The translations under genes and the position numbers were made by a program. A stretch of 64,000 nt of DNA, from positions 20,370 to 84,369 of the forward strand of contig JBQLZK010000026.1 in assembly GCA_052168235.1 (NCBI GenBank), written 5' to 3'. Below, one piece after another: positions 46,305-64,000 of this stretch (positions within the stretch are counted from its first letter, which is position 1; each line of letters begins with the position of its first letter). The notes under the pieces were generated by a model, which was not told the origin of the DNA, searched no databases, and saw only the letters and a program-made list of their open reading frames with translations. This DNA comes from Thainema sp. Its GTDB lineage: Bacteria; Cyanobacteriota; Cyanobacteriia; Phormidesmidales; Phormidesmidaceae.

Positions 46305-49241
46305 TTAGCCAAAGTGCAGCGGATCGACATCGATGGCGAGGCGTACCTGGCGCGGACAGTGGGTTCTCAACTCATTCAAATCTGGCACATCAGTATCCAG
46401 CGGAAACTTTAGCATCAGTTGCCAGCGGTAGCGGCGGGCAATTCGGACAATCGGTGCGGGGGCAGGCCCTAGCAGTTGGTGATCAACCTGGGCCAAAATC
46501 GAGTCCGGTGCTTCTAGCAGATCGGCAATCTGCTCCGCTGTTTGCTGTGCCTGTACCGGATCGAGACTGCTAAACCGTAGCAGCACAATCTGACAGTAGG
46601 GCGGAAAATGGGTTTCCTGGCGCTGCTGAAGTTCCGCCTCGGCAAAGGCCGCATAGTCCTGCTTCTGCACCGCCTCAATCACCGGATGCTGGGGATTATA
46701 GGTTTGCAGAATCACTCGGCCCGGATCCTCCCCACGACCCGCCCGACCCGCCACTTGTAGCAGCGTCTGAAACGTACGCTCACTGGCCCGGTAGTCACTC
46801 ATATAGAGCAGCCCATCAGCTGCCAAAATGCCCACCAGCGTCACCTGGGGCAGGTCAATGCCCTTGGTCAGCATTTGGGTGCCCACCAGCAGATCGGCTT
46901 CTCCCTGAGCAAAACGAGTCAGCAACGCCCGGTGCGCTCCCTTGGCACGAGTCGTATCGCTATCGAATCGGATGCAGCTCAGATCCGGAAACTGTTCGTG
47001 AATCGACTGCACCACCCGCTGAGTGCCGCTGCCGAAGTTTTTCAAATACTGAGAGCCACATTCGGGACAAGCTGGCGGTTGCGATCGCGCATAGTTGCAG
47101 TAGTGACAACGTAGGATGGGCGGCGAGTGATCATAAGGCCGATGGTAGGACAGGGAAACATCACAATCGGGGCAGGGCATCACGTAGCCACAGCTGCGAC
47201 AGGAGACAAAGGAGCTGTGTCCCCGTCGATGGATAAACAGCAGACCCTGCTGCCCCTTGGCTTTCATTTCTTCGAGGCCAAGCTGGAGCGGGCGACTGAT
47301 GATCGAGCGGTTGCCCTCGCGAAACTCGGTACGCAGATCAACGACCTGAATCTTGGGCATGGGGCGATCGTGGATGCGCTGGGGCAGGGAGAGGTAGATG
47401 TGACGGGGTTGGTGCGGTGTCGAGGGTTGTTCGATCCCCCCGCCTTCGGCACCCCCCTTCAAAAGGGGGGCAGGGGAAATCCCTTTGTCCGATACAGATA
47501 CCTGTTGATCATTCGCCACTTGATCTCCCCCCTTTTCAAGGGGAGCAGGGGGTATCTCTTGGTTCGCTAGAGATACCTGTTGATTATTCGCCACTCGTTC
47601 TCCCCCCTTATTAAGGGGGGTAGGGGGGATCTCTTCGTCCGATACAAGTACCTGTTGCTCGTTCGCCACTCGATCTTCCCCCTTTTCAAGGGGAGCGGGG
47701 GGGATCTCCACTGCCTGTTGCCATGTTTCCAGCGATGGCGTTGCCGAACCCAGCAGCAGCGGGCAGTTTTCTAACTCCGCTCGCCACTGGGCGACCGTGC
47801 GGGCGTGATAGCAGGGCACAGGCTGATCCTGCTTAAAACTGGAATCGTGTTCTTCATCCAGAACGATCAGCCCCAGGTTTTGCAGTGGTGCGAAGACCGC
47901 TGAGCGCGTGCCGATGACGATACAGGGATCGCCCTGGAGCAACTGCCGCCAGGTGTCGTAGCGTTCGCCATCCGACAGGGCGCTGTGGTAAACGCAGACG
48001 CTGCGACCGTAGCGGGCGCGGAATCGATCGGTGAGCTGGGGCGTGAGACCGATTTCAGGAACGAGTACCAGAACAGACTTTCCGGCTTTGAGTAGAGGTG
48101 CGATCGCTTGTAGATAAACTTCGGTTTTGCCCGACCCGGTGACGCCATGTAGAAGCAAGGTGGTTGAACCGTCGGCGGCATGAATGTGGTTGAGCGCCTT
48201 GGTTTGGGCAGGCGTCAGCGCTTTGGCCTGATCCGAGGGCGGCACAAAATCCGGCTCCATCCGCAGTCGTTCGCGATCTTGGATGGAAAGGTGGCCCTTT
48301 TGCTCCAGCTTTTTGAGCGTGGTGGAACTGGTTTGACAGAGCTGTAGCGCATCGGTCAGCCAGCAGTCGCCGCCGTTGCGCCAGAGGATTTGCAGAATCT
48401 CGCGCTGCCGCTTGGTGACGGTATCGGCATCAAGGTCATTGGGATTAGTGGTAACTGTAACCGCTTGCTGAAGCTTGGGCTGCGGCGATTCCGGCGGCTC
48501 CAAATAGCTCTCCACCCAGCCCGCCTGCTGGAGCTGGCGCAGTCCTCGCTGAAACTGCTTCACCTTGCGCTGGAGATACATGCGGGTATAGTCGCCCGTT
48601 TTTGACTTTTGCAGCAGCGTCAGAATTTGCTGGGCGGCAGGCAGCAGCAGCGCTTTCTCGCCATCAGAGATATCGGTTTTGATTAGCCGTATCCGCGCTT
48701 GAGAACGTCCCAGCAGCTTGGGCGGCAGCGCTGTCCGCACAACCTGAATCAGCGGCGTTTGGTAGTACTGGGCCACTTTTTGCAGCAGCAGCCAGTAGCT
48801 GGGCGCACAGAATCCCTCGCTGATCACGTCTTCAACCGGACGAATTTGCTCCGGTTCCAGATACGGAGGCAGATGAGACTGGAGTTGAAGTGCGATCGCA
48901 CCCACTTGTTGCGCCCCAAACGGTACGCTCAGCACGTCACCGGGCTGGATGGTCAAGCCAGCGGGAATGCGATAAGTGTAAACATCCTCAGCGGCGGGGC
49001 AGTCCACCAGCGCCGTCACCCAGATGACCGCTTCAGGCGATTCCGAGTTTGGGCTGGCTGGACGGAATGATGGAGCTGGCTCGGCCACTTTCAAACTGGG
49101 TGAGTTCAGTAAGTTGGCAGGATCTGTGGGTGAAGCTGTTGTTTGGGCGGAAATCGCATCGACGCTCTTGGGCTGACTGGATTCCCCAACAGCCGCAACC
49201 CGAACTGAATAATCAGAGGTAAGATTCATCGACGATCCCAA
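46305..49241 (-). CDS. priA: Primosomal protein N' (PriA) with an internal repeat insertion
   Basis: GVTGSGKT, DEEH, GSATPS, Cys-rich CxxC pairs, GTQMLTKGID and QVAGRAGR motifs. Confidence 0.95.
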   Translation of the reverse strand: MGSSMNLTSDYSVRVAAVGESSQPKSVDAISAQTTASPTDPANLLNSPSLKVAEPAPSFRPASPNSESPEAVIWVTALVDCPAAEDVYTYRIPAGLTIQPGDVLSVPFGAQQVGAIALQLQSHLPPYLEPEQIRPVEDVISEGFCAPSYWLLLQKVAQYYQTPLIQVVRTALPPKLLGRSQARIRLIKTDISDGEKALLLPAAQQILTLLQKSKTGDYTRMYLQRKVKQFQRGLRQLQQAGWVESYLEPPESPQPKLQQAVTVTTNPNDLDADTVTKRQREILQILWRNGGDCWLTDALQLCQTSSTTLKKLEQKGHLSIQDRERLRMEPDFVPPSDQAKALTPAQTKALNHIHAADGSTTLLLHGVTGSGKTEVYLQAIAPLLKAGKSVLVLVPEIGLTPQLTDRFRARYGRSVCVYHSALSDGERYDTWRQLLQGDPCIVIGTRSAVFAPLQNLGLIVLDEEHDSSFKQDQPVPCYHARTVAQWRAELENCPLLLGSATPSLETWQQAVEIPPAPLEKGEDRVANEQQVLVSDEEIPPTPLNKGGERVANNQQVSLANQEIPPAPLEKGGDQVANDQQVSVSDKGISPAPLLKGGAEGGGIEQPSTPHQPRHIYLSLPQRIHDRPMPKIQVVDLRTEFREGNRSIISRPLQLGLEEMKAKGQQGLLFIHRRGHSSFVSCRSCGYVMPCPDCDVSLSYHRPYDHSPPILRCHYCNYARSQPPACPECGSQYLKNFGSGTQRVVQSIHEQFPDLSCIRFDSDTTRAKGAHRALLTRFAQGEADLLVGTQMLTKGIDLPQVTLVGILAADGLLYMSDYRASERTFQTLLQVAGRAGRGEDPGRVILQTYNPQHPVIEAVQKQDYAAFAEAELQQRQETHFPPYCQIVLLRFSSLDPVQAQQTAEQIADLLEAPDSILAQVDHQLLGPAPAPIVRIARRYRWQLMLKFPLDTDVPDLNELRTHCPRQVRLAIDVDPLHFG
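47433..47709. repeat. In-frame tandem array of 75-bp units, each with a CCCC..AAGGGG hairpin, inside priA
   Basis: ttcgccact recurs at 47512, 47587 and 47662 (period 75). Encodes about 3.5 copies of EIPPAPLEKGG..VAN.QQV. Confidence 0.9.
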
Positions 49242-50778: not shown

Positions 50779-52881
50779 ATGTCTGCAACAATTCGCGTCC
50801 TCATGTGTCCTCCCGATCACTACGATGTGGACTATGTAATTAATCCGTGGATGGAGGGCAACGTTCATAAATCATCCCGCGATCGCGCCGTCGAACAGTG
50901 GCAAGGACTGTTCCATATTCTGAAAGAACATGCCGTTGTTGATCTGGTCAAGCCCGAAAAAGGCTGGCCAGATATGGTGTTCACGGCCAATGCCGGACTC
51001 GTTTCTGATCAAACCGTCGTACTCAGCCGTTTTCTCCATCCCGAGCGCCAGGGCGAAGAGCCTTACTTCAAAGCCTGGTTTGAGCAAAATGGCTTTACCG
51101 TACACGAACTGCCAAAAGACCTGCCGTTTGAAGGTGCTGGCGATGCTCTCTTGGATCGAGAGGGCCGCTGGCTGTGGGCGGGATATGGCTTCCGGACGGA
51201 ACTCGATTCTCATTCCTACATCGCCAAGTGGCTGGATCTGGAAGTTCTATCGCTGCGTCTCGCCGATGAGCGGTTCTACCACTTGGACACCTGCTTCTGT
51301 CCATTGACCGACGGCTATTTGCTCTACTATCCGCCTGCCTTTGATGCCTACTCAAATCGGCTGATTGAAATGCGGGTGCCTGCCGAGAAGCGGATCGCCA
51401 TCGATGAACCCGATGCCGTCAACTTTGCCTGCAACGCGGTCAATGTGGATCGGATCGTGATTATGAACAAGGCCAGTGATCGCCTCAAGCAGCGGATGAC
51501 CGATCTCGGCTTCCAGATTATCGAAACACCGCTGACCGAGTTTCTGAAAGCAGGGGGCGCGGCCAAGTGCTTAACCCTCCGCACGACTGAACCGACCCAG
51601 GCCGAAATTCACGCTAATCAGCCTGTGGAAAGCCGCACGATTCGGCTGGAGGGTCACCTGCTCGACAGCGGCATTATCAATCGGGCGCTGGATTTGATTG
51701 TCGGGGCTGGCGGTAGTTTCCAGGTGCTGGATTTCCATCTGGGCGAACAGCGTCAGAGTACGTCGTCGGCCTCCGTGCGCGTCTCGGCTCCCTCCCGCGA
51801 GGCGATGGACGATATCATGGCTCAACTAATTGACATCGGGGCAGTAGCGCTGCCTAGTGAGGTGCAGAACGCCCAGCTTGAAACGGTGGCTAAAACCGGA
51901 GTTGCGCCTGATGACTTCTACGTCACCACGATTTACCCGACCGAAATTCTCCATCAAGGGGCATGGGTGCGGGTGCAGAACCAGCGGATGGATGGCGTCA
52001 TTGTCGTCAACGAAACGAATAGCGGTGTTGTGGCACGATGCAGTTTGCTGCGGGATTTGCAGGTCAATGACCGAGTCGTCGTTGGCGTGGAAGGCATTCG
52101 GACGGTTCGTAAAACCAGCGATCGCGACCAGAAAACCCAGGAATTTACCTTTATGGGTTCCGGTGTATCCAGCGAGCGCAAGGTTGAACTGGTGGTTGAA
52201 CAAGTTGCTTGGGAACTGCGCCGTCTGCGGGATCAGGGCGGCAAGGTCGTGGTTGTAGCTGGCCCAGTGGTGATTCACACGGGCGGTAGCGACCATCTCT
52301 CGCAGCTAATCCGCGAAGGCTACATTCAAGCGCTACTGGGTGGAAATGCGATCGCAGTTCATGACATTGAACAGTCGATGATGGGCACTTCCCTCGGCGT
52401 AGACATGAAGCTGGGCACAGCCGTGCGCGGTGGTCATCGTCACCATCTGAAGGTGATTAACGCCATCCGCAACTGCGGCAGCATTGCTCAAGCTGTTGAG
52501 CAGGGCGTGTTGACGCGCGGCATTTTCTACGAGTGCGTGCGCAACAACGTACCGTTTTCCTTGGCCGGATCAATCCGTGATGACGGCCCGCTGCCCGATA
52601 CCAAAATGGATTTGCTAGAAGCGCAGACCAATTACTCTCGCTTGGTGGAAGGCGCAGACATGATCCTGATGCTGTCTACCATGCTGCACTCCATTGGCGT
52701 CGGCAATATGACCCCCTCTGGCGTGAAGATGGTCTGCGTAGATATCAACCCTGCCGTTGTGACCAAACTTAGCGATCGCGGTTCAGTCGAATCCACAGGT
52801 GTTGTCACCGATGTCGGCCTGTTCCTCAGCCTACTGGTGAAGCAGCTCGATCGGCTCACCAAGCCGTTTGCCGTGATGTAA
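50779..52881 (+). CDS. argZ: Arginine dihydrolase ArgZ/AgrE
   Basis: Amidinotransferase N-domain (INPWM, DMVFTAN, EGAGD, YHLDT, GAAKCL) plus LOR/SDH-like domains (RMDG, GSIRDDGPL, VVTDVGLFL). Confidence 0.93.
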   Translation: MSATIRVLMCPPDHYDVDYVINPWMEGNVHKSSRDRAVEQWQGLFHILKEHAVVDLVKPEKGWPDMVFTANAGLVSDQTVVLSRFLHPERQGEEPYFKAWFEQNGFTVHELPKDLPFEGAGDALLDREGRWLWAGYGFRTELDSHSYIAKWLDLEVLSLRLADERFYHLDTCFCPLTDGYLLYYPPAFDAYSNRLIEMRVPAEKRIAIDEPDAVNFACNAVNVDRIVIMNKASDRLKQRMTDLGFQIIETPLTEFLKAGGAAKCLTLRTTEPTQAEIHANQPVESRTIRLEGHLLDSGIINRALDLIVGAGGSFQVLDFHLGEQRQSTSSASVRVSAPSREAMDDIMAQLIDIGAVALPSEVQNAQLETVAKTGVAPDDFYVTTIYPTEILHQGAWVRVQNQRMDGVIVVNETNSGVVARCSLLRDLQVNDRVVVGVEGIRTVRKTSDRDQKTQEFTFMGSGVSSERKVELVVEQVAWELRRLRDQGGKVVVVAGPVVIHTGGSDHLSQLIREGYIQALLGGNAIAVHDIEQSMMGTSLGVDMKLGTAVRGGHRHHLKVINAIRNCGSIAQAVEQGVLTRGIFYECVRNNVPFSLAGSIRDDGPLPDTKMDLLEAQTNYSRLVEGADMILMLSTMLHSIGVGNMTPSGVKMVCVDINPAVVTKLSDRGSVESTGVVTDVGLFLSLLVKQLDRLTKPFAVM

Positions 52882-54000: not shown

Positions 54001-56481
54001 ATGAAAGCCCGTTTGCATTACCTTGTAGGAGTTGCCCTTACACTGGTTTGCTCCATCCCAATGCCTGTGAATTCTCAATCCACTGCCCAATCGAATCCGC
54101 AATCCATGACGGCCCAATCGATCAATACCCAATCGACTTGGCAAAATCCCCCCGATCCAATTCCAGAACTGCTGGATGCCCGCTGGTTTCCAGCGGTTAA
54201 AGTTTCGCCTAATCGCCAATGGCTGGTGCGGTTAGAGCGTCCCACCCTACCTGCGATCGCAGAATTGGCGCAGCCTCGTGTGCAAGTGGCGGGCCTCCAG
54301 ATTGACCCAGCAACTCGAAGCTCCGCCATGAACTATACGCTGCGGGGCATAGAAATTCAGAATTTGACCACTGGCGAGATTCAACCCGTTGATCTACCTG
54401 AGGATGCTCAAATTGATCATCTGCACTGGTCACCCGACGGCAATCATTTAGCCTTTACGCTGACCAAACCGAACGGGTTGGAGCTGTGGGTGCTTGATCT
54501 GCCAGCCGCCAAAGCCCAGCAGTTAACGCCGCCGATCTTGAACGCGACCTATGGCGAACCCTGCAAGTGGCTGTCGGCTGAAGCGGGACTGATCTGCAAA
54601 GTTGTGCCGGATAATCAGCCCGCTCCACCTGAAAAGCCGCTGGTTGCAGATGGCCCCCGCGTTGAGCAGAATCTGGGCCGCGAGGCTCCCAGCCGCACGT
54701 TTACTAATCTGCTGCAAAATCGTCACGATGAAGCACTGTTTGAGTATTACCTCACCTCAGCGCTGGAATTGGTCAGTCTCAACGGCGATCGCAAACGCCT
54801 GACTGCGCCCCAGCTAATCCAGTCCGTCACCGCTTCTCCTGATGGACAGTGGATTCTGCTGACGACGATTGAACGCCCTTTTTCCTACCAGGTGACCGTC
54901 CAGCAGTTCCCCAAGCGGGTTTCGGTGCTGAATTTAGAGGGCAAAGAAGTGTTCCGCGTGGCCGTTTTGCCCCTAGCCGATGACATTCCGGTAACGTTTG
55001 ACTCCCGCCGCACAGGTCGTCGGGTAGTTCACTGGCGCGGCGACCGACCCGCCACGCTCTACTGGGTGGAAGCCCTGGACGGAGGCGATGCGGAACGTCA
55101 GGTGGACAAGCGGGACGCCGTCTATCTGCTGGATGCGCCGTTTACCGATCCGCCCCAACTGCTGTGGCAAACGGATTTGCGCTACTACCAGATGTTCTGG
55201 GGCCACGATAATTTGGCGCTGGGCATGGAATATTGGTATGACTCGCGCCGCATTCGGACGTGGCAGATTGATCCGGCTGATCTCAGCGCAGCCCCGACTC
55301 TGCTGGAAGATCGCGATTTCCAGGATGCTTACAGCGATCCGGGTGAACCGATAACAGCTCCTGGCGTGTATGGTCACCACACTCTTATCCTGGCCCCAGA
55401 CGGCAACAGCATTTATTTCAAAGGGCGGGGGGCCTCACCTGAGGGCATCTATCCCTTTTTAGACCGCTGGAATTTGGCCACGGGCGGGCGGGATCGTCTC
55501 TGGCAGTCGACTGATCCCCAGTATGAGCAGGTGGTGGTGCTGTTTGATCCTGCCGCTGAGCAGATCATGACCTATCGGCAGTCTCAGGCGGAACCGCCCA
55601 ACTATTGGCGCGTGGATCTCGCTTCGGGTGAGCGGGAAGCGTTAACCAACTTTACTGACCCAATGCCCTGGTATGCCGACGTCAATTGGGAAGTGGTGCG
55701 CTATCAGCGAGCAGACGGTGTGGAACTCTCGGCCACGCTCTATCTGCCGCCAGGCTATGATCCCGCCAGCGATGGCCCTTTACCCACGGTGCTGTGGGCT
55801 TATCCCCAGGAATATAAGAGTCGCGATGCGGCTGCCCAAGTGACAACAGCAGAAAATGCGTTTAGCCGTCCCTATGGCTATTCACCGCTGCTGCTGCTCA
55901 CCCAGGGCTACGCGCTGATGATGGGGCCAACCATGCCGATTATCGGTGAGGGCAATGTTGAACCCAACGATACTTATCTGGAGCAGCTCAGCAGTAGTGC
56001 TGAAGCGGCAGTGAATTACCTAGTTGAACGGGGCATCAGCGATCCCGATCAAATTGCGATCGCAGGTCATTCCTATGGTGCCTTCACGGTTGCCAACTTA
56101 CTGGCCCACACGAATTTATTCCGGGCTGGTATTGCCAACAGCGGAGCCTACAACCGCACGCTCACCCCGTTTGGTTTCCAAGGTGAACAGCGCACGTTTT
56201 GGGATGCGCCGGAAACCTATATCAATATGTCGCCCTTTACTCATGCAGGCAAGATCAATGAACCGCTGCTGCTAATTCACGGCGCAGAAGACGAGAATCC
56301 CGGCACCTATCCCATTCAAAGTGAGCGGCTGTATGGTGCCATGCAGGGACTCGGCGGCACGGTGCGCTGGGTTGAGCTACCCCATGAAGGCCACGGTTAT
56401 CGATCGCGGGAGGCGATTGGGCATACGCTGTGGGAGATGACAAATTGGTTGGATAGGTATGTGAAAGAGGGTGAGGAGTGA
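54001..56481 (+). CDS. S9 family serine peptidase (prolyl oligopeptidase clan, glutamyl endopeptidase-like)
   Basis: Signal peptide, beta-propeller region, GHSYG, HGAEDEN and EGHGY catalytic motifs. Confidence 0.9.
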   Translation: MKARLHYLVGVALTLVCSIPMPVNSQSTAQSNPQSMTAQSINTQSTWQNPPDPIPELLDARWFPAVKVSPNRQWLVRLERPTLPAIAELAQPRVQVAGLQIDPATRSSAMNYTLRGIEIQNLTTGEIQPVDLPEDAQIDHLHWSPDGNHLAFTLTKPNGLELWVLDLPAAKAQQLTPPILNATYGEPCKWLSAEAGLICKVVPDNQPAPPEKPLVADGPRVEQNLGREAPSRTFTNLLQNRHDEALFEYYLTSALELVSLNGDRKRLTAPQLIQSVTASPDGQWILLTTIERPFSYQVTVQQFPKRVSVLNLEGKEVFRVAVLPLADDIPVTFDSRRTGRRVVHWRGDRPATLYWVEALDGGDAERQVDKRDAVYLLDAPFTDPPQLLWQTDLRYYQMFWGHDNLALGMEYWYDSRRIRTWQIDPADLSAAPTLLEDRDFQDAYSDPGEPITAPGVYGHHTLILAPDGNSIYFKGRGASPEGIYPFLDRWNLATGGRDRLWQSTDPQYEQVVVLFDPAAEQIMTYRQSQAEPPNYWRVDLASGEREALTNFTDPMPWYADVNWEVVRYQRADGVELSATLYLPPGYDPASDGPLPTVLWAYPQEYKSRDAAAQVTTAENAFSRPYGYSPLLLLTQGYALMMGPTMPIIGEGNVEPNDTYLEQLSSSAEAAVNYLVERGISDPDQIAIAGHSYGAFTVANLLAHTNLFRAGIANSGAYNRTLTPFGFQGEQRTFWDAPETYINMSPFTHAGKINEPLLLIHGAEDENPGTYPIQSERLYGAMQGLGGTVRWVELPHEGHGYRSREAIGHTLWEMTNWLDRYVKEGEE

Positions 56482-56775
56482 GGCGAGAGGAGTAAAGCGT
56501 TAAAAGTGCGATCGCATTTACATATCGTCTCAATACCAGAATGAGTGGTGGGGTTGCATTGAGGGAAAGTGCGATCGCATTAATACTGCCTTAGATGACA
56601 AGAAGGTTGTACGGAGACTCATCTGTGATGTGACGATGCAATTCACGATGATCAAAAGAAAATATGGCGATTTATTATAGTCGTCTTTGGTGAAGCCATA
56701 AATCCGAAAGCTCGATAAATAAGTGTTGGCTGTCAAGCTACAACTTAGGCAAAGCCAAGGTAGAATGTCCTGGCT

Positions 56776-58230
56776 ATGAGTAACACAACCCATGATATCG
56801 TCGCTAAACTCTGGAACCTCTGCAACATCCTTAAGGATGGGGCGATCGTTTATCACCAGTACGTAACCGAACTGACATATCTCCTTTTCTTGAAGATGGC
56901 AAAGGAGACAGAGATTGATCATCGGCTTCCAGCAGGGTATCGATGGGATGATCTTGAGACTCGCCAAGGAACTGAGCAACTTGAGTTTTACAAAGAGCTT
57001 TTAGAGCATCTGGGTCATGAAGGTTCGGTGATAGTTAAGGAAATTTTTGCTGACACCAGCACTAACATCAAAAAAGCCAATACCCTTAATACCTTAGTTA
57101 CTGAGATTGACAAGCTCGACTGGTACAACGCCAAGCGAGAGGGGATGGGCGACATCTATGAGGGGCTGTTAGAGAAAAACGCCAATGAAGCCAAGGCAGG
57201 AGCAGGGCAGTATTTTACGTCACGGGCGCTAATTGACAGCATGGTGCATGTAATGCGCCCAACTTTGAAGGATGTGATTCAAGATCCGGCGGCTGGAACT
57301 GGAGGGTTTCTGATTGCGGCAAATCGCTACATTTGCAAGCATGAAGATCCAAGCAGTTGGACGCAAGCTCAAAAAAAGAAGTACGAAACCGATACGTTCT
57401 ATGGCATGGAGTTTGTACCTGATACGTTTCGTATGGGATGTATGAATTTAATGCTGCATGGTATTGAATCTGATCCTGAACAGGCTGGAATGCGCTGTGG
57501 GGATACGCTGTCACCTGAAGGGCAAGCCTTACCACCAGCATCGCTTATGCTAACGAATCCGCCTTTTGGCAGTAAGAAGGGAGGCGGCATACCAGAGCGT
57601 CCAGATTTTGAATTTCCGACGAGTAACAAGCAGTTGTGTTTTTTGCAGCATATTTATCTTGGCCTAAAGCCAGGGGGACGGGCAGCCGCAATTTTTCCAG
57701 ACAATGTGCTTTTTGAAAGCAATGTGGGACGGCAGATCCGTCAGGATTTGATGGATAAATGCAACCTCCATACCATTTTGCGTTTACCGTCGGGTATTTT
57801 TTATGCTCAGGGTGTAAAAACTAACGTGTTGTTCTTTACCCGTGGCAAAAAGGCAACTGGTAATACGAAACAGGTTTGGGTTTATGACTTACGGACACAT
57901 GCGCCCCAGTTTGGCAAGCGGACATCTCTGACTAGTGAGTACTTTGAGCCATTTGAAAAGGTTTTTGGTGATGATCCGTTAGGGGGTGCTGCCAGTCTTG
58001 CCAAACGAAAAGACGAAGGAGAAAGCGGAAGATTCCGCAGTTTTTCGCGAGAGTGGATTGCTGAGCAGAGCGATAACTTAGATATCACCTGGCTGAATGG
58101 AGATCGCGAAGAAGAAGAAGAGGAGTTGCCAGATCCCGCGACTCTGGCTAAAGAAGCTATTACTGAGTTGGAGGGTGCTTTGGCAGAATTGCAAGGCATA
58201 TTAAAAGAACTGGGTGAGGAAATCGATTAG
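56776..58230 (+). CDS. hsdM: Type I restriction-modification methyltransferase subunit (EcoKI/type IA-like)
   Basis: DIVAKLWNLC, LPAGYRWDDL, GAGQYFT, DPAAGTGGFL, NPPF, PTSNKQLCF and LRLPSGIFYAQGVKTNVLFF motifs. Confidence 0.95.
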   Translation: MSNTTHDIVAKLWNLCNILKDGAIVYHQYVTELTYLLFLKMAKETEIDHRLPAGYRWDDLETRQGTEQLEFYKELLEHLGHEGSVIVKEIFADTSTNIKKANTLNTLVTEIDKLDWYNAKREGMGDIYEGLLEKNANEAKAGAGQYFTSRALIDSMVHVMRPTLKDVIQDPAAGTGGFLIAANRYICKHEDPSSWTQAQKKKYETDTFYGMEFVPDTFRMGCMNLMLHGIESDPEQAGMRCGDTLSPEGQALPPASLMLTNPPFGSKKGGGIPERPDFEFPTSNKQLCFLQHIYLGLKPGGRAAAIFPDNVLFESNVGRQIRQDLMDKCNLHTILRLPSGIFYAQGVKTNVLFFTRGKKATGNTKQVWVYDLRTHAPQFGKRTSLTSEYFEPFEKVFGDDPLGGAASLAKRKDEGESGRFRSFSREWIAEQSDNLDITWLNGDREEEEEELPDPATLAKEAITELEGALAELQGILKELGEEID

Positions 58231-58242
58231 GAGAGAATAGCC

Positions 58243-58488
58243 GTGATGGAAAGCATTAAGGTTCGCCAATGGGTTGGTCAAGACGGCATTTTGCATCTGG
58301 ATATTCCGGTTGGCTTAGCTGACCGAGATGTGGAAGTAATGGTGATTTATCAAGCTGTTCAATTGAATACTTCTAATGAGCTGTCTCTAGAAGGTCTTTA
58401 TGGCATTTGTGCGGATGATCCGATCAGTGTGGATGAGTCCGGCATTGCGGATGCTTTAGACGAAGACCTGACGGGAGCGTTTGAGTAA
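58243..58488 (+). CDS. Putative antitoxin
   Basis: About 80 aa with a beta-rich N-terminus (VGQDGILHLDIP) and acidic tail; ends 2 nt before a PIN toxin gene. Confidence 0.65.
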   Translation: MMESIKVRQWVGQDGILHLDIPVGLADRDVEVMVIYQAVQLNTSNELSLEGLYGICADDPISVDESGIADALDEDLTGAFE

Positions 58489-58490
58489 GC

Positions 58491-58898
58491 ATGCGCTATC
58501 TGTTGGATACGAATGTCTGCGTGGTGTATCTGAATGGTCGTTCACCATCAGTACGAGATCGCTTGTTGGCTACCCCGGCTGAGGATATTGCGGTTTGCTC
58601 GGTCGTGAAGGCGGAACTGTTTTATGGTGCTTTTCGGAGCAATAACCCAAAGCGGACGCTGGAGCGGCAGCAAGTATTTTTATCTCGTTTTGTCTCGTTA
58701 CCATTTCAAGATGAGGCAGCTTTGTTGGCAGGTGAGATTAGGGCAAAATTAGCGAGTGCAGGAATTCCGATTGGGTCTTATGATTTGCAGATTGCCGCGA
58801 TCGCTGTGGTAAACAATCTGACTTTAGTGACTCACAACACGCGAGAGTTTGAGCGAGTTGAGGGACTACAGATTGAAGATTGGGAGACTGCAATTTGA
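58491..58898 (+). CDS. vapC: VapC family PIN-domain toxin
   Basis: YLLDTN, AELFYG, IGSYDLQIAAIA and LVTHNTREF..V.GL.IEDW motifs. Confidence 0.93.
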   Translation: MRYLLDTNVCVVYLNGRSPSVRDRLLATPAEDIAVCSVVKAELFYGAFRSNNPKRTLERQQVFLSRFVSLPFQDEAALLAGEIRAKLASAGIPIGSYDLQIAAIAVVNNLTLVTHNTREFERVEGLQIEDWETAI

Positions 58899-60550
58899 GT
58901 AATCTTCCAGAAAATTGGGTCAGAACTACCTTCGGAAGTCTCTGCGATGGTGGCCAATATGGGTGGACGACTAGAGCTTCAGATCAGGGCTCTGTCAAAT
59001 TTCTACGAACTACTGATATTACTAAAGGTGAAATCGACTGGTCATCAGTACCATACTGCCAAGAAAATCCTGTAGATACTGATAAGTATCTAATTGACAA
59101 AGACGACATTTTAATATCACGGTCTGGTTCTGTAGGTTTCAGTACTTTGATTAGTGAGGTTCCGTTCCCAACAGTCTTTGCATCGTATCTCATTCGTTTT
59201 GTACCCTCAAAAAATATTGACGCAAGATATGTAGCATATTTTTTGAAGTCCTCAGACTATTGGCAACAGATTTCTGAGGCAGCTTCAGGAATTGCTGTGT
59301 CTAATGTTAATGCCAAGAAGCTTGCAGGTATCAGTACGCCACTTGCCCCTGAAAATGAGCAAAAACGAATTGTTGACAAGCTTGACAATTTGTTTGCGCG
59401 AGTGAATGCGTGTCGCGATCGGCTTGCACGTATTCCGAGCATTCTTAAAAAATACAGACAAGCTGTTTTGAGAGCTGCAATGTCAGGTGAATTAACTGAA
59501 GATTGGAGACAAGCAAATCCTGACTTTGAGCCGAATTCTGATCTATTTTTGTCGCTTCAAAATAGATACGGAGGTGAGAGAAGTAAAGGACGCGTTTCTC
59601 TAGCGGATAACCATCCTGAACTTTTACTTCCTGAAAACTGGTTGTATGTTCCGATAAAAGCTGTCGGAGAAGTCTTCTTAGGACGTCAAAGATCTCCGAA
59701 GAATCATAATGGTCCACATATGCGCTCGTACATTAGAGCTGCAAATATTACTTGGAAGGGATTAGATTTATCAGATGTAAAAGAGATGAATTTTGATCCC
59801 TCTGATTTTGAGCGGTTTAAACTACAAGTCGGCGACGTTTTAGTCAATGAAGGCTCTGGTAGTGCTGAAGAAGTAGGAAAGCCAGCAATATGGAACGGAG
59901 AGATTGAAAACTGTTGCTTTCAGAATACGCTGATTTGCGTTCGCCCTTTCGAAAACATGTCAGAATATCTATATTATGTATTCTTGAATGCAGCTCTCTC
60001 TAAAGATTTCATAAAAGAAACTCGCGGTATTGGGATTCATCACCTTGGAAAAACAAGGTTTGCTGCGTTTAGAATCTTCCTTCCTCCGCTTAAAGAGCAA
60101 CAAGAAATTGTTCGTCGAGTCAAACATTTGTTCGCCTATACAGATAGGTTGGAGGCATACTACCAAAAAGCTTCATACAAAGCAGAGCGAATCACAACTG
60201 CTTTGCTCAATAAAGCTTTTCGAGGAGAATTGACACAACAAGATATCAATGAAGAATCTGCATCCACTTTATTAAAAAGAATCCAAGCTGAGAAAGCAGC
60301 TAAACCCAAAAAAGTTTTGGTCAATAGGAAGCCTAAAATGCCTAAAATAACAGAAGATTATGTCAAAGAAGTTATTTCCCAGCTGCCGAAAGAAGTATTT
60401 TCCTTTGATAACCTGCGTGAGAGATTGTCAGGCGACTATGATCTCATCAAAGATATTTTGTTTGCATTACTAGAAACTCCTGACTCATGCATAGTTCAGG
60501 TATTTAATCAAGAAGCGCAGACCATGCAGTTTGTCAGGAGTGATAAATGA
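58895..60550 (+). CDS. hsdS: Type I restriction-modification specificity subunit with an extra C-terminal domain; likely TTG start overlapping the vapC stop
   Basis: LPENW starts each of two TRDs; conserved PLAP..EQKRIV and PPLKEQQEIV...AFRGEL helices; about 70 additional C-terminal residues. Confidence 0.92.
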   Translation: MSNLPENWVRTTFGSLCDGGQYGWTTRASDQGSVKFLRTTDITKGEIDWSSVPYCQENPVDTDKYLIDKDDILISRSGSVGFSTLISEVPFPTVFASYLIRFVPSKNIDARYVAYFLKSSDYWQQISEAASGIAVSNVNAKKLAGISTPLAPENEQKRIVDKLDNLFARVNACRDRLARIPSILKKYRQAVLRAAMSGELTEDWRQANPDFEPNSDLFLSLQNRYGGERSKGRVSLADNHPELLLPENWLYVPIKAVGEVFLGRQRSPKNHNGPHMRSYIRAANITWKGLDLSDVKEMNFDPSDFERFKLQVGDVLVNEGSGSAEEVGKPAIWNGEIENCCFQNTLICVRPFENMSEYLYYVFLNAALSKDFIKETRGIGIHHLGKTRFAAFRIFLPPLKEQQEIVRRVKHLFAYTDRLEAYYQKASYKAERITTALLNKAFRGELTQQDINEESASTLLKRIQAEKAAKPKKVLVNRKPKMPKITEDYVKEVISQLPKEVFSFDNLRERLSGDYDLIKDILFALLETPDSCIVQVFNQEAQTMQFVRSDK

Positions 60551-62175
60551 AGCTTCTTCGAGTACGAATTATTTCTGCTAAAACCTGTGGTGGGCTTCTC
60601 GACGAAGTAGAACGTTCTTTACGGAGTCCATTCAATGACTACCTCACATTTGATCCACTATGTCTAATTGGGCCAAATGGTGCCGGGAAGTCGCAATTTT
60701 TACAAATGATAGCCGAAATATTTCAATCGGTATTTCATGCATGTGTTCCAGATGAGGAACGTATTGAAGGGAATCCAGATCTTCAGTTTGAAATTGAATA
60801 TCTTGTCCATCAGGAAAACAGTCTACTGCCTGTCCGCGTTCGCATTTTGCGAGAAGCTGTTGATCGAAAACGTCCCAGCCTCATAATTCAAAAAAAAGAA
60901 GATTATGAATGGATAGACTGTGATTTGCATGCCTCTGAGACACATGCGCTATTACCTCAGAAGATTGTTGGCTATACGTCAGGTGATAACGAAACACTTA
61001 GTCTGCCTTTTCTTGTGAGCCGTAGTGGATACGCAGATGAAGTGGGTCGTAGAGCATTGAAATCAACAACTCGCGGTCACTCGGTTCCTGATACTCGCTT
61101 AATGCTGATTGATTATGAAACCCATTTAGAAGTTCTTGTCGCCAATCTTCTTCTCGGTGAGACATTCCACAGAGAAGCGCTTCTAAGGGAAGCTGACTTA
61201 CAAGATTTACACTCATTTCGTTGCATTATTCAACTAGCTCATCAGAAAAAAAGCAAGAGAAGAAGCGGGAGGAAGGGAATTCAGCTTACTGATGAGTTAG
61301 AGACATATATCGACCAGTTACAACGATGTGCTACCTGCTATACCTATGATGAGAATTCAGAAATATATACATTTGACTATTTAATTAATGAGCAGACAAG
61401 AAATGCATTCCAGTATTTCTGGAGTGATGCATTGGCGCTTTATTCATCATTTCACAAACTCGCAATGTTAAATGATTTAGTTTTATCCAAAAAGACGCGA
61501 GATCGATTTCGTCGCGATACTAGAACCAGGAGATTTGCATCACGTCTCCCCGAACCTCAAAATGAAGATAAAGTTTTTCGGTTTGAGCGCGTTAGATTCC
61601 GCAAGCGGGAAACTGATAACGAATCTGGTGAACAGGAAGTTGATTATGTTTCTTTATCTGACGGAGAACATCAACTCGCTCAACTGCTTGGTATATTCTG
61701 TATGTTGTCGTCTCCAAACATCCTGTTTTTATTAGATGAGCCCGAGTCTCACTTTAATCCTCAATGGCGAGTTAAGTTTATTTCGCGAATTCTTGATTTC
61801 CCAACAAAAGAGGGTAATCGTAGAGAAGATTCTGGAGCAACCAGGCAAGACTGTCTATTGACAACGCATGCTCCATTCATTCCATCAGATATGCACAGAG
61901 AAAAAGTGTTTATCTTTAGTAAAGATGAGGACGAAAGAATCCAAATTAGGAATCCTAATATTGAAACATTTGGTTCTACGTTTGACACTATTATCGAAGA
62001 GTGTTTTGGAGTACGTCCACCTATCTCTCAGCGCTCTCGTGACAAAATTGAAGAACTGATGAAGAGCGAAAATCCTGAAGAGATCAGAGCGGGAATTCAG
62101 GATTTAGGAAATTCTGTAGAGAAGACGTTTCTCGCTGATCATCTCCGGCAAGTAATAAGTAAAAACGAGGGTTGA
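60547..62175 (+). CDS. ABC/SMC-type ATPase (PtuA-like, restriction-system-associated)
   Basis: Walker A GPNGAGKS, signature LSDGEHQ, Walker B/D-loop LLDEPESHFNP, H-loop TTHAP; ATGA overlap with hsdS. Confidence 0.88.
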   Translation: MKLLRVRIISAKTCGGLLDEVERSLRSPFNDYLTFDPLCLIGPNGAGKSQFLQMIAEIFQSVFHACVPDEERIEGNPDLQFEIEYLVHQENSLLPVRVRILREAVDRKRPSLIIQKKEDYEWIDCDLHASETHALLPQKIVGYTSGDNETLSLPFLVSRSGYADEVGRRALKSTTRGHSVPDTRLMLIDYETHLEVLVANLLLGETFHREALLREADLQDLHSFRCIIQLAHQKKSKRRSGRKGIQLTDELETYIDQLQRCATCYTYDENSEIYTFDYLINEQTRNAFQYFWSDALALYSSFHKLAMLNDLVLSKKTRDRFRRDTRTRRFASRLPEPQNEDKVFRFERVRFRKRETDNESGEQEVDYVSLSDGEHQLAQLLGIFCMLSSPNILFLLDEPESHFNPQWRVKFISRILDFPTKEGNRREDSGATRQDCLLTTHAPFIPSDMHREKVFIFSKDEDERIQIRNPNIETFGSTFDTIIEECFGVRPPISQRSRDKIEELMKSENPEEIRAGIQDLGNSVEKTFLADHLRQVISKNEG

Positions 62176-63276
62176 ATGCTGTTCGGCTATCCTATTAAGG
62201 CGGCAGAAGATAATTGGCTACATGATTGTTTAAGTCAAATAATCCATATAATTCACAGCAATGTAGCAAGCGGAAATACATCGACCGATTGGATCTCGGT
62301 AATTTCAGAGCCATACAAAACTAGGCTTAGCAGAATCTTGGCAGTATCAAGAAATTCTAACACCAAGAGATCAAGCTTGGGAGACAAGCTAAAGAACTAT
62401 CAATTGTCTTTGACAAATCTTCCTGAGTTTGAACAAAATAGGATTTTGCAAGTATTCAATGATCAAAATAACATTGAACAGCTTTTATGCTGTGACTGTG
62501 ACTGTGACGCCATTACGGATTTGCCAGAAAGTATTCGTGAACCAGTAAAATCCTTGTTTGAGTCCGCTTTTCGGCTATTGACAAGGTTGGAAATTCGAGA
62601 TAAACAGTACCAATTAATTTATGACTCTTGTGCTTATCATGTATGTCCATTTTGTGGATGTGAATACTTTGATGCGCCCGGTGCTCCTCGTGAGGCTTTA
62701 GACCACTATATTCCAGAGCACAAGTATCCTTTTGCTGCTGCAAATCTGCGTAACCTCGTTCCTATGGGAACTAAATGTAACTCGCGTCATAAACATGATG
62801 AAGATATTCTCAGAAGAGAAGATGGTTCTCGTCGTAAGTCATTCGATCCCTATAATCATGAAACGGTTTCAGTCTCACTAGAAAAAAGTCAACCTTTTGA
62901 GGGCATAGAGGGAAAACTTGGGGAACCTTTACCCAAATGGGTAGTTGAATTTGATTCAACAGTAGAGGAAGTCGATACTTGGGATGAGGTCTTTCATATT
63001 CGAGAAAGATATGAAAGAGACGTTCTAAACGAAGGATTTAACTCTTATCTAAGAGAGTTCGGAAATTACTGTAAGTCTTGGAAATATAAACCAAACTCTA
63101 CAGAAGCTCTAATTGAAGTCATCGACAAGTATATTTCTTTTCAAGATGATAATGGATTTAGAGATAAAGCCTTTATGAAGGTTGCTGTGTTCAGAATGCT
63201 ACGTTCGCACTGTCAAAATGATGATCAACGCTTGATCGAATTTATTTTAGACAATGTTAACGAAGTTTGTGTATAG
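62176..63276 (+). CDS. HNH endonuclease-like protein (PtuB-like)
   Basis: CPFCG...LDHYIP..KYP....NLRNLVPM..KCNS; starts immediately after the ATPase stop. Confidence 0.8.
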   Translation: MLFGYPIKAAEDNWLHDCLSQIIHIIHSNVASGNTSTDWISVISEPYKTRLSRILAVSRNSNTKRSSLGDKLKNYQLSLTNLPEFEQNRILQVFNDQNNIEQLLCCDCDCDAITDLPESIREPVKSLFESAFRLLTRLEIRDKQYQLIYDSCAYHVCPFCGCEYFDAPGAPREALDHYIPEHKYPFAAANLRNLVPMGTKCNSRHKHDEDILRREDGSRRKSFDPYNHETVSVSLEKSQPFEGIEGKLGEPLPKWVVEFDSTVEEVDTWDEVFHIRERYERDVLNEGFNSYLREFGNYCKSWKYKPNSTEALIEVIDKYISFQDDNGFRDKAFMKVAVFRMLRSHCQNDDQRLIEFILDNVNEVCV

Positions 63277-63477
63277 GTTGCATTTACACTCTGATCCGCT
63301 CGCTGCTTTGGATTGCAATCATAATAAGGCACAATTTACACCCATTGGCAATGTTTCAGCTTTTATGTAACCCTTGCGATAGTAACCTTTGGCTTTCTCA
63401 AAGGCCAAATTTTTAGGGGCTAAACTGAAAGCACAGTGCTAAAAGTATCTGCATACGTGGGTCTGGAAATAACAGTC

Positions 63478-63946
63478 ATGGCGACCACCTTACGCATCCA
63501 AACAGAAACAACTCCTCTAACGGTTTCCCTCCCGTCCATTGCGCCAATGACACAGGCTGAATTCTATACGTTTTGCCAAGCCAATCCAGCCCTGCGAATT
63601 GAACGCACGGCCACCGGAGAAGTTGTGATTATGCCACCCGCTTTTTCAGATACCGGGAATCGTAACTTTAACCTGGCTGTGCAGCTTGGCATTTGGTCAG
63701 AACAAGATGGCACTGGCTTTGGTTTTGACTCTAGCTCAGGATTTACACTACCCAACGGAGCCACCCGTTCACCCGATGCAGCTTGGATTAAAGCATAACG
63801 TTGGAACGCATTGACAGCAGAGGAAAAAGCATCCTTCGCTCCCCTCTGTCCAGACTTTGTCATTGAGCTACGGTCTGCCAGCGATACATTGGCAGAGCTA
63901 CAGGCCAAAATGCAAGAATATATCGACAACGGCACCTCGTTAGGAT
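63478..63946 (+). pseudogene. Uma2 (DUF820) endonuclease gene with a nonsense codon and 3' truncation
   Basis: RIERTATGE, DSSSGFTLPNGATRSPDAAW; TAA at 63796-63798; frame continues CPDFVIELRS...KMQEYIDNG..LG and then diverges before the expected WLID. Confidence 0.8.
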
Positions 63947-64000
63947 CTAATCCTGTAGGGGTTTGGAAACGGCTGCAGCGCCCTGTTTAACAAAGAAGAA

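Follow-up and report, generated by a model that had tools for sequence, protein, structure and literature searches.

A cyanobacterial gene island that appears to couple a DNA methylase and specificity subunit to a Septu-like ATPase and nuclease in place of the usual restriction subunit

What does a type I methyltransferase do with its specificity subunit when the neighboring genes encode an ATPase and a nuclease rather than the restriction subunit HsdR? A locus found in 64 kb of cyanobacterial DNA (hereafter the window), which ends 724 nt 3' of the HNH gene, raises this question. Reading of the ORFs gives a single tight plus-strand operon composed of hsdM, a vapB-like ORF, vapC, hsdS, an ABC ATPase gene and an HNH gene (Table 1), as laid out in the initial annotation. 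The three junctions described there were also read directly: a TTGA overlap between vapC and hsdS at 58895-58898, which involves a second in-frame TTG of hsdS at 58895, an ATGA overlap between hsdS and the ATPase gene at 60547-60550, and a gap of 0 nt between the ATPase and HNH genes (62175/62176). From its gene content, the island appears to couple a DNA methylase and a DNA-reading subunit to a Septu-like ATPase and a nuclease, which would replace the usual restriction subunit.

Table 1 Features of the operon and of its edges in the window
Feature	Coordinates	Strand	Basis or remark
Non-coding gap, 294 nt	56482..56775	+	Between S9 peptidase and hsdM; left edge of low-GC island
hsdM, type I m6A DNA methyltransferase, 484 aa	56776..58230	+	N6_Mtase 2.9e-70; PADLOC MTase_I 2.3e-200
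81-aa ORF, VapB (antitoxin) position	58243..58488	+	GTG start; ATG at 58246 just after
vapC, PIN-domain toxin	58491..58898	+	PIN 5.6e-18; NF047863 tRNA(fMet)-specific VapC, 148.3 bits, cut-off 140
hsdS, specificity subunit, two TRDs, 556 aa from TTG 58880	58880..60550	+	Two Methylase_S stretches; PADLOC Specificity_I 2.6e-107
HsdS C-terminal tail, residues 480-556: basic linker and winged-helix-like domain	60317..60547	+	Predicted ATPase docking element
ABC ATPase, 542 aa, TIGR04435, PtuA-like	60547..62175	+	Profile matches, motifs, solved relatives
ATPase residues 260-290, predicted HsdS-tail-binding surface	61324..61416	+	Complex model
HNH-core protein, 366 aa	62176..63276	+	Helical N- and C-terminal parts flank small core
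Terminator-like hairpin, 9 pairs, then T run	63388..63419	+	Hairpin scan, GC profile

The S9 peptidase gene ends at 56481, which confirms the 294-nt gap previously noted upstream of hsdM. This gap is presumed to be the promoter region of the operon; a promoter scan of it found no consensus promoter. Two HIP1-containing repeats lie inside the same gap. On the 3' side, the terminator-like hairpin is presumed to mark the end of both the operon and the island. It is followed by a Uma2 ORF (63436-63798) that stops at an in-frame TAA and is indeed a pseudogene, since the frame continues past this codon. A family scan of all 31 ORFs of at least 300 aa in the 64 kb window found no hsdR, as had been claimed, and the sole ResIII match was PriA (46305-49241). 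An hsdR located past the window end is unlikely, because the gene lies upstream in 25/25 of the relatives that have one.

The methyltransferase and the specificity subunit have canonical type I features. HsdM carries the SAM motif DPAAGTGGFL (residues 170-179) and NPPF (inside residues 259-265), and the two Methylase_S stretches of HsdS show conserved regions alternating with variable TRDs. Between the two genes, the 81-aa ORF had been called an antitoxin. Its position before vapC stands, but profile searches gave zero family matches even at E<=10, and BLAST relatives were found only at loci L001, L003, L004 and L032; it is therefore an antitoxin by position only. The vapC gene is cargo embedded at the hsdM-hsdS junction.

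The ATPase aligns over residues 1-535 with positions 1-565 of the 568 of TIGR04435 (477.2 bits, cut-off 300). Walker A (41-50), LSDGEHQ (370-376), Walker B LLDEPE (395-400) and the H-loop (441) are all present. In agreement with the proposed likeness to Septu and retron I-A, its best solved relatives in the PDB are PtuA of retron Ec78 (9vh1, 1.5e-7) and PtuA of Septu (8ee4, 1.1e-5). It matches the PADLOC PtuA model PDLC00293 at 2.4e-47, but with the NCBIfam PtuA model, whose cut-off is 500, it reaches 35.9 bits. The HNH protein has a conserved CxxC...DH...N...CN core (residues about 157-206, nt 62644-62793). Its PADLOC matches include PDC-M62B (2.2e-12) and, weakly, PtuB (7.3e-5 over residues 144-208); against the PDB, PtuB structures included, no sequence match and no fold match was found at E<=0.001.

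How general is this arrangement? From 143 relatives, 80 loci in more than 10 phyla were kept; they were selected through the ATPase, so the linkage to HsdM and HsdS is seen from the ATPase side only. Their constant unit is HsdM-HsdS-ATPase-HNH. In every locus with upstream sequence, hsdS directly precedes the ATPase gene, the stop of the former overlapping the start of the latter by 4 nt in 69/75 loci, and the distance from the ATPase gene to the HNH gene ranges from -8 to +17 nt in 71/71 loci. Twelve loci, the window and a Sphingobium plasmid carry cargo genes at the M-S or the H-M junction; none was found between S, ATPase and HNH in the 80 loci, the window and that plasmid. One locus (L001) has both hsdM and hsdS broken by insertions.

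A linked hsdR is present in 25 of the 80 loci (R+), always immediately upstream and on the same strand. The 55 others are R-, including 37 with 3.5 kb or more of upstream sequence and 29 with that much on each side. Among the 62 informative loci, 25 are R+ and 37 have no linked hsdR. In L065, which is scored R-, another type I system, whose HsdR match is weak, lies about 8 kb 3' of the ATPase and HNH genes. On 60 informative rows, parsimony counts no fewer than 13 switches between R+ and R-. In the cyanobacterial clade (support 99, 21 rows), the window is joined by 15 informative R- loci, and no R+ locus was found; within this clade, all four genes are intact at pairwise ATPase identities to the window down to about 66%. 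Two plasmids carry the system, one of them R+. In the other, a Bacillota homologue with 28% identity, hsdR is not annotated within 10 kb and the linkage to hsdS is kept. Because the R state changed at least 13 times, the cyanobacterial clade is wholly R- and only 25/80 loci are R+, the absence of hsdR does not look like a simple deletion; linked HsdR is optional and has been gained or lost repeatedly. The initial annotation would have been refuted by a near-universal hsdR in close homologous loci, and the counts of 25/80 loci, or 25/62 informative ones, go against that.

The catalytic motifs are intact in both states. NPPF is kept in 68/68 HsdM proteins (37 R-, 24 R+, 7 uninformative), as is the SAM motif, and the catalytic motifs of the ATPase and of the HNH protein are kept equally in R- and R+ loci. 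In addition, three R- loci (L007, L008, L009) have ATPases 97% identical, HsdM proteins 90-91% identical and HNH proteins 90-92% identical, whereas their TRDs have diverged to 21-25% (TRD1) and 13-21% (TRD2) identity. Across 1711 pairs, the identity of neither TRD correlates with that of the ATPase (Spearman 0.11 and 0.21). Hence, specificity domains of HsdS are still swapped among R-less loci with near-identical modules. Since NPPF is kept in 37/37 R- HsdM and the TRDs are swapped, both methylation and sequence specificity seem to be in use.

On the other hand, the identity of the HsdS tail tracks that of the ATPase (Spearman 0.80 over the same pairs). The predicted fold of this tail is a linker followed by an H-b-H-H-b-b domain. 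It was found in about 98% of family members, while a distant Priestia HsdS gave no match to the tail HMM. A search of 1.84 billion proteins returned 398 representative matches, and in 150/150 of those listed the tail lies within about 65 residues of the C-terminal end. The full-length carriers sampled were HsdS in 22/22 cases; among carriers sampled and matches listed, the tail is either part of an HsdS or a separate protein, about 70 aa long. Judging from these searches, the C-terminal linker and winged-helix domain is specific to this family of HsdS.

A modeled complex predicts that the tail contacts the ATPase. The tail docks with ipSAE values of 0.70, 0.71 and 0.70, against 0.00 for the best of 3 controls; ipSAE is the model's own confidence, and the values come from self-made alignments in a three-chain job. 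The mark used was calibrated on jobs that were not three-chain, where 116/157 solved complexes reach it versus 2/215 mismatched pairs. Contacts agreed at 100% between runs, with partner pLDDT of at least 76. The nearly invariant tail residues Y520, F528, L531, Q540 and F542 are all (5/5) within the 16 interface residues out of 87, an enrichment (hypergeometric P 1.2e-4) to which the model itself may contribute by drawing conserved residues there. On the ATPase side, T263 and D277 never vary and A287 hardly does. The coupling of M/S to ATPase-HNH suggested by the initial annotation is backed by this docking model, by the 4-nt overlap and by a gene order S-ATPase-HNH that does not vary, and the two pairs are likely to form one physical or functional unit.

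Is this unit a known system? An association of such ATPases with RM systems is already known, as the NCBI name of TIGR04435, "restriction system-associated AAA family ATPase", states. The window ATPase is a member, and database sources name its relatives alike. TIGR04435 is an annotation label only: a literature search found no paper using its name or accession, and no description of the four-gene unit, the optional HsdR or the HsdS tail was found in the literature or in family annotation. Among PADLOC candidates, the ATPase matches PDC-M62A (2.2e-15) and the HNH protein matches PDC-M01B (4e-11) as well as PDC-M62B, with partial coverage of each protein. A preprint by Payne et al. (guilt-by-embedding) describes 145 predicted candidates from inside BREX, DISARM or type I RM loci, which were put into PADLOC.

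Canonical type I RM does not describe the locus, HsdR being missing in the 64 kb window and, as a linked gene, from the 15 informative cyanobacterial relatives. Septu, like retron type I-A (Septu type II), has the same gene order, with the ABC ATPase first and the HNH protein second. However, Septu is a stand-alone two-gene system, whereas here the pair never occurs without hsdS in the examined loci with upstream sequence. Retron I-A also joins a PtuAB-type pair to a separate sensor module, but that sensor is a reverse transcriptase with msDNA instead of a methyltransferase. In PrrC-EcoprrI, an ABC ATPase effector is likewise genetically tied to type I RM; PrrC is described as one polypeptide that includes an anticodon nuclease, in an hsdMSR locus with HsdR, whereas here the HNH protein is separate and HsdR mostly absent. 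Such a guardian architecture does not fit the window, which has no hsdR and a nuclease not fused to the ATPase; no PrrC model was among the best 25 of 88 PADLOC matches. PARIS is described as having a TOPRIM partner and no tie to M/S, in contrast to the M/S-tied HNH partner found here. AriA profiles cover only ATPase residues 310-445 (5.3e-17), and no TOPRIM match was found for the HNH partner. Finally, the MADS report (PMC13662399) describes m6A modification by type I-like M/S with ATPase-nuclease modules, and self/non-self discrimination without canonical HsdR. The window HsdM and HsdS match the mad2 and mad5 profiles, but at 84.2 bits against a cut-off of 720 for NCBIfam MAD2 and 67.5 against 400 for MAD5. 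According to the same text, MADS has eight genes including a Toprim nuclease and a kinase, unlike the four-gene module with an HNH nuclease; the MAD3/4 and MAD7/8 modules are missing from the operon. MADS, retron I-A and PrrC are precedents for the module.

Our best explanation, held tentatively, is a type I-derived, HsdR-independent, methylation-guided defence system with a Septu-like effector. Its basis is the gene identities, order and coupling, the optional HsdR, the intact motifs, the exchange of TRDs and the family-specific tail. HsdM and HsdS would act as a usual methyltransferase, marking the host's bipartite target sites with m6A. The linker and winged-helix tail of HsdS would hold the PtuA-like ATPase and, via the ATPase, the HNH nuclease on the methyltransferase. 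Encounter of the M/S complex with unmethylated target sites, which we infer could perhaps be the trigger, would license the tethered ATPase-HNH to cut nucleic acid, presumably the invader's own or, in an abortive response, targets in the cell. In the loci that have it, HsdR would be an optional second effector, and VapBC unrelated cargo at a permissive hsdM-hsdS junction. Three points speak against this methylation-guided reading: a second restriction effector looks redundant beside the intact HsdR of 25 loci; known PtuAB-type effectors, as in retron I-A, are triggered toxins and not site-directed restriction enzymes; and recombination with other hsdS genes might exchange TRDs as a neutral side effect.

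The first of these points suits better a somewhat less likely reading, the main one of the initial annotation, in which M/S keeps the tethered ATPase-HNH silent until the methyltransferase is bound by a phage anti-restriction protein, either a DNA mimic of the Ocr/ArdA type or a Stp-like peptide, which frees or activates the effector and leads to abortive infection. The intact HsdR in the same operon would then have a back-up, R-less loci would be pure decoys, and the predicted tether and tight gene coupling suit this guarding role equally well. The idea has already been published in general form for ABC ATPases encoded inside type I RM loci (the "RM guardian" concept), with PrrC in EcoprrI freed by T4 Stp and PARIS triggered by Ocr as precedents. 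The joining of PtuAB to a sensor in retron I-A, whose Ec78 PtuA is the closest solved relative, points the same way. However, a decoy could do without catalysis and without new specificities, yet all R- HsdM proteins retain NPPF and both TRDs are wholly different where R- ATPases are 97% identical; moreover, 37/62 informative loci have no linked HsdR to guard. Of the two sensor roles initially offered for M/S, the DNA-mimic decoy thus lacks specific support, while sensing of the methylation state fits the kept NPPF and the swapped TRDs.

It is improbable that the locus is an ordinary type I RM whose hsdR is elsewhere in the genome or recently lost, with ATPase-HNH as an accessory or passenger using the RM operon only for co-transfer and expression. 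The absence of hsdR was read from linked sequence, which would allow a trans-acting HsdR; type I RM loci often hold embedded defence genes; and the M-S junction of related loci holds varied cargo, hsdM and hsdS even being interrupted in L001. However, the R- state is long-established and stable, as seen in the entire cyanobacterial clade with its four intact genes, and a passenger would keep neither the hsdS overlap nor co-variation with a tail that, among listed and sampled carriers, is found on HsdS or alone. Least probable is an independent Septu-like pair beside an orphan type I methyltransferase devoted to epigenetic regulation: orphan M/S pairs are common and the pair matches the PADLOC PtuA and PtuB profiles, but hsdS linkage persists even at 28% identity in Bacillota, with translational coupling, tail-ATPase co-variation and a predicted docking whose controls score zero.

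The M-S-ATPase-HNH arrangement, present in many bacterial phyla, probably forms one anti-phage machine.

ORF calling recovered six plus-strand ORFs at exactly the coordinates of the initial annotation, in the order hsdM, 81-aa ORF, vapC, hsdS, ATPase gene and HNH gene. The TTGA (vapC/hsdS), ATGA (hsdS/ATPase) and 0-nt (ATPase/HNH) junctions were all read directly from the sequence, and the 294-nt gap 5' of hsdM was confirmed. The absence of hsdR also holds for the window, which ends 724 nt 3' of the HNH gene: none of its 31 ORFs of at least 300 aa is HsdR, and the sole ResIII match among them is PriA, which rules out an hsdR elsewhere in the window. The position of the 81-aa ORF fits the antitoxin role proposed for it, but it matches no family at any threshold and gives no meaningful Pfam hit even at E ≤ 10; hence it is an antitoxin by position only. 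The HNH protein had no match in Pfam and NCBIfam scans, nor anything meaningful in Pfam at E ≤ 10. It contains an HNH core, CxxC...DH...N...CN, and its PADLOC matches span residues about 137-213.

Features of the module and its surroundings (window positions)
Feature	Position	Strand	Evidence or remark
PriA gene	46305-49241		neighbour
ArgZ-like arginine dihydrolase gene	50779-52881		neighbour
hsdM	56776-58230	+	N6_Mtase and HsdM_N domains; PADLOC type I methyltransferase model, 2.3e-200
vapC	58491-58898	+	PIN protein; above the NCBIfam cut-off for tRNA(fMet)-specific VapC
hsdS	58880-60550	+	two Methylase_S stretches
ATPase gene	60547-62175	+	TIGR04435, 477 bits against a cut-off of 300; PADLOC PtuA model, 2.4e-47
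HNH gene	62176-63276	+	PADLOC PDC-M62B, 2.2e-12; PDC-M01B; weakly PtuB, 7.3e-5
Terminator-like hairpin	63388-63409		3' of the HNH gene

The island has a GC content of 0.38-0.48, versus 0.51-0.60 in its flanks. Its right edge is marked by a broken Uma2-family gene (63436-63990), for which the in-frame stop reported initially was confirmed as a TAA at 63796-63798. Beyond this codon the frame is still Uma2-like, then diverges and reaches a stop near 63990. Between the peptidase gene and hsdM, a motif of about 15 nt occurs twice (56504-56518 and 56566-56581); its core is the cyanobacterial HIP1 palindrome, GCGATCGC (AAGTGCGATCGCATT). The two copies may be normal HIP1 sites, or scars of insertion at the edge of the island. 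The ArgZ-like gene, PriA and the HIP1 sites suggest that the source is a cyanobacterial chromosome.

Among solved structures, those closest to the ATPase in sequence are PtuA of retron Ec78 (1.5e-7) and Septu PtuA (1.1e-5), with matches over residues 394-506; AriA resembles it at the Walker A motif only. The HNH protein has no solved relative by sequence. Its model is confident (pLDDT 91.9) and mostly helical around a small HNH core, and a search for PtuB or any other solved fold as a global match gave none at E ≤ 0.001. Its atlas look-alikes, with scores of 0.96-0.97, are named HNH endonucleases, and PF01844 is found on 27% of the members of one look-alike cluster. The ATPase-HNH pair would work like Septu, of which it is a candidate member.

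The ATPase family is large (3604 proteins at E ≤ 0.001 among 8000 candidates scored). The 120 best matches listed are all at least 66% identical, and many carry the NCBI family name. Scanning genomes with an alignment of 18 sequences yielded 143 relatives, of which the best 80 loci, from more than 10 phyla and excluding the source genome, were kept with up to 10 kb per side. Locus ORFs were labelled by BLAST with the window proteins; of the 123 ORFs of at least 550 aa left unlabelled, 79 representatives (at most two per cluster) were scanned with Pfam. Among these representatives, only cluster c0 was canonical HsdR (ResIII, EcoEI_R_C, HSDR_N). The other large ORFs near the modules, considered as alternative HsdR, were relaxases, transposases, McrB-like AAA_5 proteins, housekeeping proteins or ORFs of no family; cluster c1 and similar ones are probably antisense shadow ORFs in GC-rich loci. 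An HMM of c0 run against all 5826 ORFs identified HsdR in 25 of the 80 loci, two copies being frameshifted. In these 25, without exception, hsdR is the immediate upstream neighbour on the same strand, with gene order R-M-S-ATPase-HNH or R-S-ATPase-HNH-M. Of the 55 loci without linked hsdR, 37 extend at least 3.5 kb upstream of the module, the side on which HsdR is expected, and 29 extend that far on both sides; the 37, and the loci with hsdR, are called informative below. One of the 37, L065, has another type I system as well, whose HsdR match is weak and lies at the locus edge.

In a tree of 76 ATPases, the presence of hsdR changed at least 13 times over 60 informative rows. The cyanobacterial clade that includes the window (21 rows, support 99) contains 15 informative rows without hsdR, 5 uninformative ones and none with hsdR. 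A plasmid search found only two carriers: a Sphingobium plasmid, whose module has hsdR, and a distant Bacillota plasmid (28% identity), whose annotation shows no hsdR within 10 kb. Because of these repeated changes, the hsdR-free cyanobacterial clade and the Bacillota plasmid, close homologues cannot be said to almost always carry hsdR, the outcome that would have spoken against the initial annotation. A simple deletion of hsdR is ruled out by its absence across the whole cyanobacterial clade and in the 37 informative loci. Overall, the module ranges over cyanobacteria, Pseudomonadota, Myxococcota, Planctomycetota, Acidobacteriota, Deinococcota and the distant Bacillota member. No ATPase relative was found in phage genomes, and blastn with the ATPase gene of locus L054 gave no match in complete E. 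coli genomes.

Several relatives depart from the common layout. In the closest one, L001 (Pantanalinema, 80% ATPase identity), the ATPase and HNH genes are whole and a DDE transposase gene is inserted in hsdS; since both hsdM and hsdS are split, this copy looks, from its sequence, to be decaying. L015 and L050 are degenerate: hsdM is missing, and a C-terminal hsdS fragment with the tail described below precedes the ATPase gene. The HNH gene of L015 is also broken by insertions, and L050 retains HsdR. Two Larkinella loci, L078 and L080, encode HsdM-HsdS-ATPase with no HNH gene. Their ATPases are shorter (492-494 aa, matching query residues 1-491), and the next gene encodes, on the opposite strand, a protein of about 375 aa with no Pfam family. 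Upstream of hsdS in L056 (2377-7859), where sister loci have HsdR, lie genes for a PLD-like protein and a 1152-aa SNF2/ResIII helicase; these may be a further, third type of effector serving the same M/S-ATPase-HNH core, M/S being HsdM with HsdS.

The unit from hsdS onwards is constant. In every locus having upstream sequence, hsdS is immediately 5' of the ATPase gene, its stop overlapping the ATPase start by 4 nt in 69 of 75 loci, and ATPase-to-HNH spacing is -8 to +17 nt in 71/71. Additional genes are found at the hsdM-hsdS junction, or at HNH-hsdM in the other gene order. VapBC occupies this site in the window and four relatives; elsewhere it holds a PIN protein, YhcG/DUF1016 PD-(D/E)XK nucleases, DUF4357 proteins, an HNH protein with a NucS-like protein, an 8xMP membrane protein or an IS element, and in the Sphingobium plasmid a hypothetical protein and a GIY-YIG nuclease. 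Loci with such a cargo hotspot are L018, L019, L036, L038, L040, L042, L044, L046, L051, L057, L059 and L081 (8710-10427). Since the junction accepts varied genes in relatives, VapBC is cargo, outside the core. A preprint by Payne et al. likewise describes defence genes that are "embedded" in type I RM loci.

The methyltransferase motifs are intact whether or not hsdR is linked. NPPF is kept in all 68 HsdM proteins (37 from loci without hsdR, 24 with, 7 uninformative), as is the SAM motif. Likewise, SLSDGEHQ is present in 75 of 76 ATPases, the remaining one having WLSDGEHQ, and the Walker A motif, the Walker B DEPE core, the H-loop His and the HNH core are retained, in all listed variants, in both kinds of loci. 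HsdS shows the classical alternation of variable target recognition domains (TRDs) and conserved spacers. Over 1711 pairs from the 59 modules having all four genes, TRD identities are distributed bimodally, around 0.15-0.25 or around 0.85-0.99, and show no correlation with those of the ATPases (Spearman 0.11 and 0.21). Three loci without hsdR, L007, L008 and L009, are illustrative: the ATPases are 97% identical, HsdM 90-91% and HNH 90-92%, and the TRDs are only 21-25% (TRD1) and 13-21% (TRD2) identical. TRDs so unlike beside near-identical ATPases indicate, at the sequence level, that TRD exchange continues in lineages without linked HsdR. Such exchange is expected if specificity and methylation matter to the function of the module; a pure DNA-mimic decoy does not require it.

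HsdS is long in TIGR04435 loci (556 aa in the window), and the best HsdS profile stops at residue 479. The remaining tail (residues 480-556), present in about 98% of members, consists of a basic linker and, after it, a domain of about 65 aa in which five residues are nearly invariant (39-sequence alignment). Its identity follows that of the ATPase (Spearman 0.80) and of the HNH protein (0.76) more than that of HsdM (0.50), a tracking partly expected from gene adjacency alone. The model shows a disordered linker and an H-b-H-H-b-b topology (mean pLDDT 77, domain blocks 81-92). A fold search gave no match at E ≤ 0.001, and Pfam at E ≤ 10 nothing meaningful. Winged-helix proteins come out best, with weak matches (FoxP3 8sro, E 0.083; SarA 9ilk, probability 0.99, TMq 0.56), and together with the topology these matches lead us to call the domain winged-helix-like. 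Atlas look-alikes score only 0.85-0.86, a lead and no more.

Among 1.84 billion representatives, the tail profile matched 398 proteins at E ≤ 0.001. In 150 of the 150 listed, the match lies at or near the C-terminus (within about 65 residues, mostly within about 5), and all 22 full-length carriers sampled are HsdS. About a dozen of the matches listed are stand-alone proteins of 68-71 aa (e.g. P0193, P0202), starting at a Met that fused tails also conserve. Within the loci, the tail HMM identified 80 HsdS-labelled ORFs, the Sphingobium HsdS and a 71-aa ORF of L037 (3057-3272), between a tail-less hsdS and the ATPase gene, and nothing else; the distant Priestia HsdS was not matched. This distribution suggests an adaptor, fused or free, or an internal start site.

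A complex of three chains, namely the ATPase, the HNH protein and, as partner, the tail within HsdS residues 470-556, scored 0.70, 0.71 and 0.70, versus 0.00 for the best of three controls. Among solved complexes 116 of 157 reach this mark, as do 2 of 215 mismatched pairs, counts that are only rough here because our own alignments and three chains were used. The runs agree on 100% of contacts, with partner pLDDT of at least 76. The modelled tail contacts the ATPase only, through residues 509-549 on ATPase 223 and 260-290. All five nearly invariant tail residues (Y520, F528, L531, Q540 and F542) lie within the 16 interface residues of 87 (P 1.2e-4), and ATPase T263 and D277 are invariant. No similar solved complex is known to us, so a score that only reproduces a known structure seems unlikely. 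The model thus supports tail-ATPase binding, which it does not show.

M/S and ATPase-HNH probably form one unit. The coupling proposed in the initial annotation is supported; its decoy role, unproven, is somewhat disfavoured by the specificity and catalysis kept in loci without hsdR. A tentative mechanism is that the M/S methyltransferase would recognise unmethylated target sites and thereby trigger the effector. In a bolder version, which we put forward with some reserve, TIGR04435 loci would be a distinct RM class in which M2S1 recruits the Septu-like ATPase and HNH via the HsdS winged-helix domain, replacing HsdR and attacking DNA without the host m6A pattern. The closest competitor, which we consider rather unlikely, is that M/S holds ATPase-HNH silent until an anti-restriction protein releases it. 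Such a release fits the 25 loci where HsdR shares the operon, and known PtuAB systems, which behave as triggered toxins, but lineages without hsdR keep catalysis and specificity turnover, and for this reason we favour the unmethylated-site trigger. That HsdR acts in trans, with ATPase-HNH a passenger, is improbable, and mere adjacency of ATPase-HNH to M/S very improbable.

The family name of TIGR04435, "restriction system-associated AAA family ATPase", already records an association with restriction systems. Our literature search found no paper using "restriction system-associated AAA" or TIGR04435. Searches on Septu/PtuA/PtuB with type I restriction or hsdS/hsdM, and on rloA/rloB, retrieved no description of an hsdM-hsdS-ATPase-HNH unit; the ABC ATPase classification of Krishnan et al. 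2020 may bear on novelty. The module, widespread and already named but apparently undescribed, is a variant of type I RM, Septu/retron I-A and MADS. According to Payne et al., 145 candidates were added to PADLOC, and the PDC-M models matching the window's pair carry this candidate naming; embedded ABC ATPase systems are proposed there as back-ups triggered by anti-defence proteins, with PrrC cited. Other sources describe PrrC and PARIS as "RM guardian systems" (a 2025 review), auxiliary modules in which HNH proteins are linked to OLD-type ABC ATPases (a 2026 BREX survey), m6A marking combined with ATPase-nuclease modules in MADS (PMC13662399), and MANTIS (Gao_RL) as another methyltransferase-ATPase-nuclease system.

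The triggers of Septu/PtuAB effectors are still debated. The predicted complex gives the module a specific docking mechanism that experiments can test. With current tools, the module would probably be annotated as an incomplete type I RM together with a Septu-like pair, which matters for methylome interpretation and cyanobacterial transformability. If our reading is true, type I enzymes have a second, HsdR-free route from sequence and methylation recognition to nuclease action, and Septu/PtuAB-type effectors gain a defined upstream sensor with a predicted, mapped docking surface. Should TIGR04435 loci be a distinct RM class, Septu-type effectors would be interchangeable outputs for different sensors: none in Septu, reverse transcriptase and msDNA in retron I-A, and a methyltransferase here.
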